From a virus (Duplodnaviria > Heunggongvirae > Uroviricota > Caudoviricetes), in IMG/VR virus record IMGVR_UViG_3300018483_000013: a stretch of 5,626 nucleotides of DNA. One strand, written 5' to 3'. This document shows, piece after piece, positions 1,164-5,626 of this stretch (its first letter is position 1; each line of letters opens with the position of its first letter). Under the pieces are notes generated by a model, which saw nothing but the letters and a program-made list of their open reading frames with translations, searched no databases and was not told where the DNA came from. The translations under genes and the position numbers were made by a program.

Positions 1164-2752
1164 AACGAACGCCTGTCCTGATTGATGTGAACGGTGTTCC
1201 GCTTCGTGAGAGTCTCAGCTACAACGGGGGCGGCGCAGGATTTGGCGGGCAAATGGCGGAGTGGTTGCCACCGGCGCAGAGTGCCGATGCGGCCCTGCTG
1301 CCCGCGTTGCGTCTGGGGAATGCCCGGGCAGATGATCTGGTGCGCAATAACGGAATAGCGGCTAATGCGGTTGCCCTGCATAAGGATCACATTGTCGGGC
1401 ATATGTTTCTGATCAGCTACCGTCCGAACTGGCGCTGGCTGGGGATGCGGGAGACCGCAGCAAAAAGCTTTGTCGATGAGGTGGAGGCGGCCTGGTCGGA
1501 ATACGCCGAAGGGATGTTTGGCGAGATCGACGTGGAAGGAAAACGCACGTTCACGGAATTTATCCGTGAAGGTGTGGGCGTTCATGCGTTTAACGGCGAA
1601 ATCTTTGTGCAGCCGGTCTGGGATACGGAAACCACGCAGTTATTCCGTACGCGTTTTAAAGCTGTGAGTCCGAAACGGGTGGACACGCCTGGACACGGTA
1701 TGGGGAACCGTTTTCTGCGGGCCGGTGTGGAGGTCGATCGATATGGCCGTGCCGTCGCGTACCATATCTGTGAGGATGATTTTCCGTTCTCTGGTAGTGG
1801 ACGATGGGAACGGATCCCGCGTGAACTTCCCACCGGGCGTCCGGCCATGCTGCATATTTTCGAGCCGGTGGAGGACGGGCAGACCCGTGGGGCTAATCAG
1901 TTTTACAGCGTCATGGAACGGCTGAAGATGCTCGATTCCCTGCAGGCAACACAGCTTCAGTCGGCCATAGTGAAGGCGATGTATGCAGCGACGATTGAAA
2001 GTGAACTTGATACCGAAAAGGCCTTTGAATATATCGCCGGCGCGCCACAGGAGCAGAAGGATAATCCGCTTATTAATATTCTGGAGAAGTTCTCCAGCTG
2101 GTATGACACGAATAACGTGACACTGGGCGGAGTCAAAATTCCGCACCTTTTCCCTGGTGATGATCTGAAACTACAGACTGCGCAGGATTCAGACAATGGA
2201 TTTTCTGCACTTGAACAGGCGCTGCTGCGGTATATCGCCGCCGGTCTTGGCGTTTCCTACGAACAGTTGTCCCGTGATTACTCGAAGGTCAGTTACTCAA
2301 GTGCCCGCGCCTCCGCCAATGAGTCGTGGCGCTATTTTATGGGGCGGCGAAAATTTATTGCGGCCCGGCTGGCCACGCAGATGTTTTCCTGCTGGCTGGA
2401 AGAGGCACTTCTTCGGGGGATTATTCGTCCGCCACGGGCACGTTTTGATTTTTATCAGGCGCGATCAGCCTGGTCACGGGCAGAGTGGATTGGTGCCGGA
2501 AGAATGGCCATTGACGGGCTCAAGGAAGTCCAGGAATCAGTGATGCGCATTGAGGCCGGACTGAGCACGTATGAGAAAGAGCTGGCGCTGATGGGCGAGG
2601 ATTATCAGGACATTTTCCGCCAGCAGGTCAGGGAATCTGCTGAGCGGCAAAAAGCCGGACTCTCACGTCCGGTGTGGATAGCGCAGGCGTATCAGCAGCA
2701 GATAGCGGAGAGTCGCAGGCCGGAAGAGGAGACAACACCACGTGAGACGTAA
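1160..2752 (+). CDS. B: Portal protein (lambda gpB-like), 530 aa
   Basis: Long stretches match recalled lambda gpB motifs: GNARADDLVRNNG, HAFNGEIFVQPVWDT, FEPVEDGQTRGAN, LQSAIVKAMYAATIESELDT, LRYIAAGLGVSYEQLSR, ARASANESW-YFMGRRKF, WIGAGRMAIDGLKEVQESVM-IEAGLSTYEKE. Length is 530 aa versus about 533 in lambda. The start ATG overlaps the W stop (ATGA at 1160-1163) and is preceded by GGGAGTGAGG. Confidence 0.96.
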   Translation: MKRTPVLIDVNGVPLRESLSYNGGGAGFGGQMAEWLPPAQSADAALLPALRLGNARADDLVRNNGIAANAVALHKDHIVGHMFLISYRPNWRWLGMRETAAKSFVDEVEAAWSEYAEGMFGEIDVEGKRTFTEFIREGVGVHAFNGEIFVQPVWDTETTQLFRTRFKAVSPKRVDTPGHGMGNRFLRAGVEVDRYGRAVAYHICEDDFPFSGSGRWERIPRELPTGRPAMLHIFEPVEDGQTRGANQFYSVMERLKMLDSLQATQLQSAIVKAMYAATIESELDTEKAFEYIAGAPQEQKDNPLINILEKFSSWYDTNNVTLGGVKIPHLFPGDDLKLQTAQDSDNGFSALEQALLRYIAAGLGVSYEQLSRDYSKVSYSSARASANESWRYFMGRRKFIAARLATQMFSCWLEEALLRGIIRPPRARFDFYQARSAWSRAEWIGAGRMAIDGLKEVQESVMRIEAGLSTYEKELALMGEDYQDIFRQQVRESAERQKAGLSRPVWIAQAYQQQIAESRRPEEETTPRET

Positions 2753-4247
2753 TCTTTCACACATTATTGCCGCAGCATTCAATGAACCGCTGCTTCTGGA
2801 GCCCGCCTATGCGCGGGTTTTCTTTTGCGCGCTCGGGCGCGAGATGGGGGCAGCAAGTCTTTCGGTACCACAACAACAGGTACAGCTTGATGCTCCCGGA
2901 ATGCTGGCTGAAACGGACGAGTATATGGCCGGAGGTAAACGACCGGCCCGTGTTTACCGGGTGGTGAACGGTATTGCTGTACTGCCGGTGACCGGCACGC
3001 TGGTGCACCGGCTGGGTGGTATGCGGCCATTTTCCGGAATGACAGGCTATGACGGCATTGTCGCCTGTCTTCAGCAGGCAATGGCGGATAGCCAGGTGCG
3101 GGGCGTACTGCTGGACATTGACAGTCCGGGCGGGCAGGCCGCCGGCGCGTTTGACTGCGCTGACATGATTTACCGCCTCCGTCAGCAGAAGCCGGTCTGG
3201 GCACTGTGCAATGACACGGCCTGTTCTGCAGCCATGCTGCTGGCGTCGGCCTGCTCCCGACGGCTGGTTACCCAGACATCCCGTATCGGCTCCATTGGCG
3301 TGATGATGAGCCATGTCAGCTATGCCGGTCATCTGGCGCAGGCCGGTGTGGATATCACGCTGATTTACTCAGGGGCGCACAAGGTGGATGGCAATCAGTT
3401 TGAAGCGTTGCCGGCAGAGGTTCGCCAGGACATGCAGCAGCGGATTGATGCGGCGCGCCGGATGTTTGCCGAAAAAGTGGCGATGTATACCGGTCTGTCT
3501 GTTGATGCCGTCACGGGAACAGAGGCTGCCGTTTTTGAAGGTCAGTCCGGCATTGAGGCCGGGCTGGCGGATGAATTAATCAATGCGTCGGATGCCATCA
3601 GTGTGATGGCCACGGCGCTGAACAGTAATGTCAGAGGAGGCACTATGCCGCAATTAACTGCAACGGAAGCCGCCGCGCAGGAGAACCAGCGAGTGATGGG
3701 GATCCTGACATGCCAGGAAGCGAAAGGACGTGAACAGCTTGCCACGATGCTGGCAGGACAACAGGGCATGAGCGTTGAACAGGCCCGGGCGATTCTGGCC
3801 GCGGCGGCACCGCAGCAGCCGGTGGCATCCACGCAGAGTGAAGCCGATCGCATTATGGCGTGTGAAGAAGCGAACGGTCGTGAACAACTGGCGGCAACGC
3901 TGGCGGCGATGCCGGAGATGACGGTGGAAAAAGCCCGCCCGATCCTGGCTGCTTCACCGCAGGCGGATGCCGGACCATCACTCCGTGATCAGATCATGGC
4001 ACTGGATGAGGCAAAAGGGGCTGAGGCGCAGGCTGAACAGCTGGCTGCCTGCCCGGGAATGACAGTGGAGAGCGCCCGGGCTGTGCTGGCTGCGGGATCA
4101 GGTAAGGCAGAACCGGTCTCTGCATCCACAACCGCCATGTTTGAACATTTCATGGCGAACCATTCACCGGCAGCGGTACAGGGTGGCGTGGCACAGACGT
4201 CAGCAGACGGTGATGCGGACGTGAAAATGCTCATGGCCATGCCATGA
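2742..4247 (+). CDS. C: Prohead protease / minor capsid protein C (lambda gpC-like, peptidase S49/ClpP-fold family), 501 aa, GTG start
   Basis: The N-terminal two thirds align with recalled lambda gpC (NEPLLLEPAYARVFFCAL, VNGIAVLPVTGTLV, MTGYDGIV, GAFDCADMI, KPVWAL-ND-ACSAA-LLASA-SRRLVTQT, GSIGVMM-H, ITLIYSG-HKVDGN, EAAV--GQ--I-AGLADEL). The putative catalytic Ser is residue 162 (TCT at 3225-3227). GTG at 2742 is the first start codon after an in-frame TAG at 2703-2705; a GAGGAG motif lies about 10 nt upstream; the gene overlaps the portal stop by 11 nt. Confidence 0.93.
   Translation: MRRNLSHIIAAAFNEPLLLEPAYARVFFCALGREMGAASLSVPQQQVQLDAPGMLAETDEYMAGGKRPARVYRVVNGIAVLPVTGTLVHRLGGMRPFSGMTGYDGIVACLQQAMADSQVRGVLLDIDSPGGQAAGAFDCADMIYRLRQQKPVWALCNDTACSAAMLLASACSRRLVTQTSRIGSIGVMMSHVSYAGHLAQAGVDITLIYSGAHKVDGNQFEALPAEVRQDMQQRIDAARRMFAEKVAMYTGLSVDAVTGTEAAVFEGQSGIEAGLADELINASDAISVMATALNSNVRGGTMPQLTATEAAAQENQRVMGILTCQEAKGREQLATMLAGQQGMSVEQARAILAAAAPQQPVASTQSEADRIMACEEANGREQLAATLAAMPEMTVEKARPILAASPQADAGPSLRDQIMALDEAKGAEAQAEQLAACPGMTVESARAVLAAGSGKAEPVSASTTAMFEHFMANHSPAAVQGGVAQTSADGDADVKMLMAMP
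3645..4247 (+). CDS. Nu3: Nested in-frame scaffolding protein (lambda Nu3-like), sharing frame and stop with the protease gene; about 200 aa
   Basis: An internal ATG at 3645 is in the protease frame ((3645-2742)/3 = 301) and is immediately preceded by a strong Shine-Dalgarno AGAGGAGG (3633-3640). In lambda, Nu3 is translated from an internal start inside C in the same frame. The downstream sequence is Ala/Gln/Glu-rich and helix-like, typical of scaffold proteins. The exact start needs experimental confirmation. Confidence 0.7.
   Translation: MPQLTATEAAAQENQRVMGILTCQEAKGREQLATMLAGQQGMSVEQARAILAAAAPQQPVASTQSEADRIMACEEANGREQLAATLAAMPEMTVEKARPILAASPQADAGPSLRDQIMALDEAKGAEAQAEQLAACPGMTVESARAVLAAGSGKAEPVSASTTAMFEHFMANHSPAAVQGGVAQTSADGDADVKMLMAMP
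3690..4094 (+). repeat. Three tandem, diverged copies of a ~40-45 aa motif (R-[VI]-M-x-[IL]-x-x-x-E-A-x-G-x-E-Q-L-A-x-x-L-A-x-x-P-x-M-[ST]-V-E-x-A-R-x-[IV]-L-A-A) inside the C/Nu3 coding region
   Basis: Protein-level repeats read from the translation: RVMGILTCQEAKGREQLATMLAGQQGMSVEQARAILAAA (3690-3803), RIMACEEANGREQLAATLAAMPEMTVEKARPILAAS (3849-3953), and RDQIMALDEAKGAEAQAEQLAACPGMTVESARAVLAAG (3984-4094). The copies are diverged at the nucleotide level, so this is an old duplication, not an assembly artefact. Confidence 0.75.
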
Positions 4248-4283
4248 AGTCAGTGCTGACCATCAATAGGAGGTTTTTACAAT

Positions 4284-4631
4284 ATGGTGACGAAAACCAT
4301 CACTGAACAGCGTGCGGAAGTACGTATTTTTGCCGGTAATGATCCGGCTCATACCGCCACAGGCAGCAGCGGGATTTCCTCGCCAACACCGGCACTGACG
4401 CCCCTGATGCTGGATGAAGCCACCGGGAAACTGGTGGTCTGGGACGGACAGAAAGCCGGTAGTGCGGTTGGCATACTGGTACTGCCGCTTGACGGCACAG
4501 AGACGGCGCTGACGTATTACAAGTCGGGAACCTTTGCGACGGAGGCAATCCACTGGCCTGAAAGTGTGGATGAACACAAAAAGGCCAACGCCTTTGCCGG
4601 CAGTGCCCTGAGTCACGCGGCGCTGCCGTAA
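4284..4631 (+). CDS. D: Head decoration protein (lambda gpD-like), 115 aa
   Basis: Matches recalled lambda gpD motifs: NDPAHTAT, TPLMLD, KLVVWDG, AVGIL, YYKSGTF, FAGSA (lambda is about 110 aa). AGGAGG at 4268-4273 lies 10 nt upstream of the ATG at 4284. Stop TAA at 4629-4631. Confidence 0.93.
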   Translation: MVTKTITEQRAEVRIFAGNDPAHTATGSSGISSPTPALTPLMLDEATGKLVVWDGQKAGSAVGILVLPLDGTETALTYYKSGTFATEAIHWPESVDEHKKANAFAGSALSHAALP

Positions 4632-4640
4632 CACGTTATC

Positions 4641-4658
4641 AGGCCACCGCGGTGGCCT
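4641..4658. promoter_or_regulatory. Perfect 18-bp palindrome AGGCCACCGCGGTGGCCT in the D-E intergenic region; candidate RNA hairpin (partial terminator/attenuator or mRNA-stability element) or protein-binding site
   Basis: Seen directly: AGGCCACCG is the exact reverse complement of CGGTGGCCT. It sits 10 nt after the D stop and 31 nt before the E start, and is followed by GACTGATTTCTG, which is T-containing but not a clean U-tract. Function is inferred. Confidence 0.4.
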
Positions 4659-4688
4659 GACTGATTTCTGAATGAAAGGAACTGATTT

Positions 4689-5602
4689 ATGGGATTGTTT
4701 ACGACCCGCCAGTTACTCGGTTATACCGAACAAAAAGTGAAATTTCGTTCGCTGTTTCTGGAGCTGTTTTTCCGCCGTACGGTGAATTTCCATACCGAAG
4801 AGGTGATGCTGGACAAAATTACCGGAAAAACGCCGGTGGCGGCCTATGTCTCCCCGGTTGTTGAAGGAAAAGTGCTGCGTCATCGTGGTGGTGAAACCCG
4901 CGTGTTGCGTCCGGGCTACGTCAAGCCGAAACACGAATTTAATTACCAGCAGGCGGTTGAGCGCCTTCCTGGTGAAGATCCATCTCAACTGAACGATCCG
5001 GCTTACCGCCGTCTGCGTATCATTACCGATAACCTCAAACAGGAAGAGCACGCGATTGTCCAGGTGGAAGAAATGCAGGCGGTAAATGCTGTGTTGTATG
5101 GCAAATACACCATGGAAGGAGACCAGTTCGAGAAAATTGAGGTCGATTTTGGCAGGTCGACGAAGAATAACATCACACAGGGTAGCGGTAAGGAATGGTC
5201 AAAACAGGATCGTGACACTTTCGATCCTACACATGATATTGATCTTTACTGCGACCAGGCCAGCGGTCTTGTGAATATTGCCATCATGGACGGTACCGTT
5301 TGGCGTCTGCTGAATGGTTTTAAGCTGTTTCGCGAAAAACTGGATACCCGTCGCGGTTCAAATTCACAACTCGAAACGGCAGTGAAAGATCTGGGCGCAG
5401 TGGTGTCCTTCAAGGGGTATTACGGCGATCTGGCTATTGTTGTGGCGAAAACGTCTTATATAGCAGAAGACGGTATCGAAAAACGTTATCTTCCAGATGG
5501 CATGCTGGTCCTGGGGAATACTGCTGCAGATGGGATCCGTTGTTACGGAGCCATTCAGGATGCGCAGGCGTTGTCCGAAGGTGTGGTGGCTTCTTCCCGT
5601 TA
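4689..5602 (+). CDS. E: Major capsid protein (lambda gpE-like), N-terminal ~304 codons; 3' end truncated by the contig/adapter boundary (lambda gpE is about 341 aa)
   Basis: Strong similarity to recalled lambda gpE: PGYVKPKHE, DPAYRR-RII, AIVQVEEMQAVNAVL-GKYTM, NNITQ, EWSK-D, KEKLDTRRGSNS-LETAVKDLG, YGD-AIVV, LPDGMLVLGNT, YG-IQDA. The AAGGA Shine-Dalgarno lies about 8 nt upstream of the ATG at 4689. The apparent stop TAA at 5601-5603 is formed by genomic TA plus the first adapter base, so it is not the real stop. Confidence 0.93.
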
Positions 5603-5626
5603 AGATCGGAAGAGCACACGTCTGAA
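5603..5626. other. Illumina TruSeq adapter read-through sequence AGATCGGAAGAGCACACGTCTGAA (start of the index-adapter trimming sequence). Not biological sequence.
   Basis: Exact match to the first 24 nt of the standard TruSeq read-1 3' adapter (AGATCGGAAGAGCACACGTCTGAACTCCAGTCAC). It mirrors the adapter at positions 1-51. Confidence 0.95.

Follow-up and report, generated by a model that had tools for sequence, protein, structure and literature searches.

Does the head protease gene of a lambda-like phage hold a second, in-frame translation start from which the scaffold protein is made separately? We addressed this question in IMG/VR record IMGVR_UViG_3300018483_000013, a 5,626-nucleotide (nt) stretch of Caudoviricetes DNA (the window; coordinates refer to its + strand unless stated otherwise), in which gene 5, encoding a head protease fused to a scaffold domain (501 amino acids (aa)), occupies 2742-4247. 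An earlier note, made from the sequence alone, had placed a Shine-Dalgarno sequence (SD; AGAGGAGG) at 3633-3640, 4 nt before an in-frame ATG at 3645 and 301 codons into the gene, and had proposed that a scaffold like lambda Nu3 begins there and shares the C-terminus of the protease. Direct reading of the letters bore out every part of the first statement, and the second is matched by existing annotation of the same nucleotide in two GenBank records of phage 21 (M81255 and OL657228). Together with the conservation described below, this makes it very probable that ATG 3645 and its SD form the start of gene 6, the counterpart of lambda Nu3, such that one late mRNA would yield two proteins in one frame.

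The internal start and phage 21 gene 6

In M81255 ('Bacteriophage 21 head gene operon'), gene 5 corresponds to window positions 2742-4247 and the coding sequence (CDS) at 5475..6077 (gene 6, 'gp6', AAA32344.1) to 3645-4247, so that the two genes have a common frame and stop codon and gene 6 lies nested within gene 5 as a scaffold protein of 200 aa; the ribosome-binding site (RBS) of gene 6 falls at 3634-3638. The same nested CDS appears in OL657228, the complete phage 21 genome of 2022 (PMC9119081), as CPT_21_06 (UMO75421.1), a 'scaffolding protein' that likewise carries an RBS. Window positions 3621-3660 match phage 21 without a difference, and identity over the gene is 99.7%, with four nucleotide differences in gene 5 (at 2876, 2886, 2924 and 3859); the ATG, RBS, stop codon and three annotated repeats (Tri1-3 boxes) of gene 6 are the same in both. 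Unlike the reference phage, the window derives from an adapter-flanked short-read contig. The exact 200-aa gp6 protein occurs in public collections, and a Gifsy-1 record quotes the UniProt title 'Head-tail preconnector protein GP5 [Contains: Scaffold protein GP6'. The site thus coincides with gene 6 in both nucleotide sequence and coordinates and, as judged from this match, is the gene 6 start annotated since 1993 and already known.

At the site itself, the codons AGA-GGA-GGC-ACT-ATG (R-G-G-T-M) contain the SD as AGA-GGA-GG(C), followed by a 4-nt spacer (CACT, 3641-3644) and the start codon (3645-3647). The ATG lies 903 nt, or 301 codons, downstream of the GTG at 2742 and is codon 302 of 501; its product would begin MPQLTATEAA, with the N-terminal peptide (M)PQLTATEAAAQENQR. 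Pairing with the anti-SD was estimated at -12.0 kcal/mol, which ranks first among the 317 ATG, GTG and TTG triplets of the + strand and exceeds every accepted start in the window (gpW, -9.5; portal, -7.7; gp5, -9.1; decoration protein, -10.9; major capsid protein, -5.6), and the runner-up among in-frame internal starts of gene 5 reached only -7.4. An alternative register, GAGG at 3634-3637, would give a spacer of 7 nt. Local folding revealed no regulatory RNA structure at the site and nothing that speaks against initiation either, the fold at the start being no more stable than that of shuffled sequences (z = -0.69 in the window, z = +0.28 in lambda). CII binding sites annotated near the start in OL657228 are no more than pattern matches, lie on the opposite strand and were disregarded.

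The start also falls at a domain boundary. Residues 146-293 of gp5 match Peptidase_S49 (Pfam PF01343, E=3.7e-35), and phmmer comparison with SppA structures 3rst and 4kwb places an SppA-like (S49) protease fold at residues 77-290 (2970..3611), which puts Met302 12 residues beyond the fold, at the start of a linker. Downstream, gp6 matches phrog_8399 ('head scaffolding protein', E=1.5e-34), and the C-terminal part of gp5 aligns by BLASTP with lambda C in two segments, one of them at lambda residues 355-414. Most of gp6 consists of the Tri boxes, three repeats of ~40 residues located at 3712..3815 (Tri1), 3852..3962 (Tri2) and 3993..4106 (Tri3, of which gp5 residues 418-457 align with lambda residues 364-403). 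All three are annotated as repeat_region in M81255, which gives their function as unknown, and recur both as protein repeats and as helix pairs in an AlphaFold2 single-sequence model of gp6. The modelled protein is helical throughout, which is usual for scaffolds, and confidence in the model is low (predicted local distance difference test score 65; predicted template modelling score 0.31); at that low confidence, each Tri box is predicted to form one long and one short helix.

We propose that initiation at GTG 2742, where the start codon is weaker, the spacer measures 9 nt and the gene overlaps the portal stop codon, would yield gp5 (501 aa), in which a short linker joins the S49 protease to the scaffold domain, and that the strong internal SD and ATG 3645 would yield gp6 (200 aa), which has only the scaffold domain and matches the last 200 residues of gp5 exactly. 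By analogy with lambda C/Nu3, abundant gp6 would build the internal scaffold of the procapsid, the common C-terminal domain would bring the protease into the shell in small numbers, and the protease would then remove both the scaffold and itself, with the ratio of scaffold to protease set by how strong each initiation site is relative to the other. The same analogy suggests that gp6 would be needed for procapsid assembly and absent from the mature head.

Conservation of the site and evidence against it

We aligned 210 unique protease-scaffold open reading frames (ORFs) from annotated phages and IMG/VR. The earlier note had named such an alignment as a comparison that could move the start elsewhere; it placed an ATG in the same column as window Met302 in 204 of the 210 ORFs (median SD pairing energy (dG), -10.3), and in 192 of these 204 no other in-frame internal start had a better SD. 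The exact arrangement GGAGG-N4-ATG was found in 196 ORFs, including those of lambda, phi80 and Gifsy-1. After clustering at 90% identity, the complete motif was present in 13 of 24 clusters and the Met in 18 of 24. The surrounding residues vary by lineage, with 25 contexts recorded around the start (VRGGTM, DTGGTM, KTGGTM, SKGGDM, SRGGSM, LSGGRM and others).

As a synonymous-site control, we compared codon use at the 20 Gly columns conserved in at least 98% of ORFs, which share the same sequences and tree. At the Gly that supplies the A of GGAGG, the codon was GGA in 196 of 196 sequences, although GGA makes up 17% of all Gly codons; the adjacent Gly, just outside the core, is encoded by GGC, GGA or GGG, and the remaining 18 columns use three or four codons each. 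Because this one Gly codon is fixed as GGA while other conserved Gly columns vary, codon usage indicates that selection acts on the nucleotide sequence of the SD and not on the protein. Exceptions to the pattern are also informative: in L138 (PGERNM) the Gly-Gly pair is lost and an AGGAGAA motif still lies upstream, and in L260 the ATG is shifted by one codon and GGAGG is retained. Even in distant S49 fusions, namely the Chi-like phages Utah and Redjac and Rhodobacter phage RcJoli, the best internal SD and ATG come right after the protease domain. Gene 5 thus has the internal-start layout of a C/Nu3-type pair, with an SD and in-frame start just past the protease domain and a common stop codon. 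The above-chance evidence for the site is this conservation, not the single sequence.

Several observations weigh against an internal start at 3645. In the window, AGGAGG occurs no more often than expected by chance on the two strands (2 copies versus 2.2 expected), and GGAGG-N3-9-ATG occurs four times versus 1.65 expected, a count reached by 16 of 200 shuffles; such single-window motif counts were not used as support. The SD of ATG 3645 is of middling accessibility (56th percentile of 12-mers), versus the 85th to 99th percentile at the gp5, decoration protein and major capsid protein starts. A 4-nt spacer after GGAGG lies at the short end of Escherichia coli usage, and most of the homologues come from a small number of enterobacterial lineages, with the motif confined to three large clusters when sequences are grouped at 70% identity. 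GenBank labels the RBS features 'putative', and our literature search found no experimental report of a product initiated at MPQLTATEAA in phage 21 or in this prophage; literature and full-text searches likewise retrieved no paper that addresses the N-terminus of either phage 21 gp6 or lambda Nu3. The spacer had also led the earlier note to suspect that the true start might be a nearby codon, a doubt that the alignment largely removes: GGAGG-N4-ATG is the form found in 196 of 210 ORFs, and the neighbouring in-frame starts lack a comparable SD.

Lambda Nu3 and rival explanations

Like gene 5/gene 6, lambda C/Nu3 is located between the portal and decoration genes and reads from an S49 protease into a scaffold domain without a change of frame, and lambda gpC is 54% identical to gp5 over the alignable part. 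In lambda, AGGAGG-GCGA-ATG at nt 5342 (Met309) occupies the same alignment column as ATG 3645 and has the same 4-nt spacer. The two differ in that lambda has one Tri-type repeat and a linker after the Met that is ~40 residues longer. The scaffold from the homologous lambda start would accordingly measure 131 aa versus 200 aa in the window, the gap being explained by the single Tri copy in combination with the longer linker.

The annotated start of lambda Nu3 lies elsewhere. RefSeq NC_001416 and J02459 place the gene at 5132-5737 (201 aa), from gpC Met239, which aligns with Ile235 in the window, where there is no start codon; Met occupies this column in only 42 of the 210 ORFs, and there is no SD (median dG, +0.3). 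As SppA structures align with lambda gpC residues 81-298, Met239 falls inside the fold. The comparison with lambda that had been proposed as a check therefore divides: the annotated coordinate fails to match, but the homologous site at 5342 does match. Taken on its own, the annotated start would give a false negative, since Met239 is unconserved and internal to the protease. Overall, lambda-type records use three codons for Nu3, namely residue 239 (RefSeq, HK630 and phage 434, whose record adds a note that begins 'real Nu3 start ...'), residue 207 (lambda imm21) and residue 309, and only the last is conserved; the 131-aa product from residue 309 is called on 165 contigs and corresponds to a 131-position PHROG, 'head scaffolding protein'. 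On this comparative evidence we consider that the RefSeq start (5132, 201 aa) is probably wrong and that lambda Nu3 is the 131-aa product from 5342, a start probably already known to specialists. Purified lambda gpNu3, which we take to be ~13 kDa, would fit 131 aa.

These records bear on the possibility that the true scaffold start in the window is another codon, whether ATG 3606 (Met289), GTG/ATG 3693/3696 (Val318/Met319) or the position matching lambda Met239 (Ile235). Such a start would relieve the short spacer of ATG 3645, would agree with the database entries that use residues 239 and 207, and could draw on a moderate SD at Met319 (-7.4). Yet the window has Ile in the first of these lambda columns, the 207 column holds GTG in 89 of 210 ORFs with a median SD dG of only -3.2, and the SppA-like fold encloses both columns; Met289 lacks an SD and is poorly accessible, and Met319 belongs to the conserved ENxRIMGIL motif, which accounts for its conservation at the protein level. 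We therefore regard a different start codon as very unlikely.

Two further readings would dispense with initiation at 3645 altogether. The SD-like sequence could be the by-product of a Gly-Gly hinge or protease cleavage site, with free scaffold released by proteolysis of gp5, an idea favoured by the conserved Gly-Gly at -3/-2 in 196 sequences, by the position of the site in a linker between two domains and by the processing of lambda gpC. Constraint on the protein, however, explains neither the use of GGA in all 196 sequences when each of the 19 remaining conserved Gly columns draws on three or four codons, nor the ATG fixed 4 nt downstream in 204 of 210 ORFs, and the SD persists where Gly-Gly has been replaced (L138) or displaced (L260, Utah, Redjac and RcJoli), which leaves this explanation with little credit. 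Alternatively, an internal SD just past a domain boundary might slow the ribosome, allowing the protease to fold before the scaffold domain is made, with no protein starting there; a slowing of elongation by SD-like sequences within genes has been proposed and is contested. A pause needs no start codon, yet the ATG is conserved at a fixed 4 nt in 204 of 210 ORFs, and gene callers and curators independently take ATG 3645 as a start, so a pause without initiation appears extremely improbable.

A start of gene 6 at ATG 3645 thus remains the explanation that we favour, and the feature is genuine and ordinary for lambda-like phages. A stronger version, in which GGAGG-4 nt-ATG, near-invariant in lambda-, phi80-, Gifsy- and 21-type lineages and with an unusually short spacer, is a tuned device and not a generic RBS, strikes us as doubtful; under it, the site would fix the ratio of scaffold to protease, or gp6 initiation would need ribosomes that translate gene 5 and thereby open the mRNA. 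Our understanding of phage assembly is unchanged by these results, and their value lies in annotation. ORF tracks and most automatic annotation report a single 'S49 family peptidase' and overlook the nested, abundant scaffold protein, such that automatic pipelines would under-annotate an essential head gene. For gpC-type genes, a practical rule would be to look for GGAGG-N4-ATG about 10-15 residues past the S49 fold. By-products of the analysis are quantitative evidence of nucleotide-level selection on the SD and the observation that the widely copied lambda Nu3 coordinate 5132 is not a conserved start.

Related systems and the surrounding head operon

The gpC homologues of Gifsy-1, phi80 and related enterobacterial prophages have the same architecture, with GGAGG-N4-ATG at the domain boundary; in records of the Gifsy-1/phi80 type (50-70% identity) the nested gene is unannotated. 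A different layout is found in Citrobacter phage phiNP, in which the S49 protease stops after 289 aa (1498-2364 of the locus compared) and is followed directly by a separate 200-aa ORF annotated as 'hypothetical protein' (2366-2968). The family of this ORF, phrog_6382, matches gp6 weakly (E=1.8e-5), and BLASTP detected no pairwise similarity between gp6 and the phiNP 200-aa ORF. The arrangement suggests that phiNP may make the same two products from unfused genes, with the scaffold as its own polypeptide. Phage Mu I/Z and herpesvirus UL26/UL26.5 also pair a short, abundant scaffold with a co-terminal protease-scaffold fusion, which targets the protease into the procapsid; UL26/UL26.5 achieves this with a separate transcript and no internal SD. 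Both pairs use other protease folds, whereas gp5 is S49/SppA-like and lacks the herpes-type assemblin fold; the likeness to UL26/UL26.5 is one of functional analogy only.

A lambda-type head operon on the + strand fills the window, and its gene order (terminase, W, portal, protease/scaffold, decoration protein and major capsid protein) puts gene 5 in the position of lambda C/Nu3. From the ORF list we identified the 3' part of the large terminase gene (35-973), gpW (957-1163; Pfam gpW) and the portal gene (1160-2752; Phage_portal_2), and beyond gene 5 lie a decoration protein of the lambda D type (shp, 4284-4631; HDPD) and the major capsid protein gene (from 4689, truncated at the contig end; Phage_cap_E). 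This order of Pfam domains agrees with the GenBank annotations of phage 21, and by megablast the protease ORF is 99.7-99.8% identical to those of phages ev017, PhiR57_1 and phage 21. Gene 5 begins with GTG, as does lambda C; its RBS, AGGAGA at 2727..2732 (mapped from the regulatory feature at locus 1486-1491 of M81255), is separated from GTG 2742 by 9 nt and pairs with the anti-SD at the -9.1 given above.

Neighbouring head genes overlap at terminase/W (17 nt, 957-973), W/portal (ATGA, 1160-1163) and portal/gene 5 (11 nt, 2742-2752), which fits translational coupling along the operon. Outside gene 5, the other perfect AGGAGG of the window, at 4268-4273, lies 10 nt upstream of the decoration-protein ATG at 4284; both copies precede start codons. 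Illumina TruSeq adapter, which is non-phage DNA, is present at both ends of the window, at 1-51 (GCATACGAGAT-GCCTAA-GTGACTGGAGTTCAGACGTGTGCTCTTCCGATCT) and at 5603-5626 (AGATCGGAAGAGCACACGTCTGAA). It accounts for the ORF starts reading 'MCSSDL...' at both ends and for the TAA at 5601-5603 that closes the capsid ORF after 304 aa, all of which are artefacts; in M81255 the capsid gene of phage 21 measures 1029 nt and runs further. Finally, the interval between the decoration and capsid genes contains a 9-bp GC-rich hairpin (TCAGGCCACCGCGGTGGCCTGA) followed by a T-containing tract (4639-4670), and a rho-independent terminator is annotated at the matching intergenic position of phage 434; the hairpin may be an attenuating terminator or a hairpin that stabilises the mRNA.

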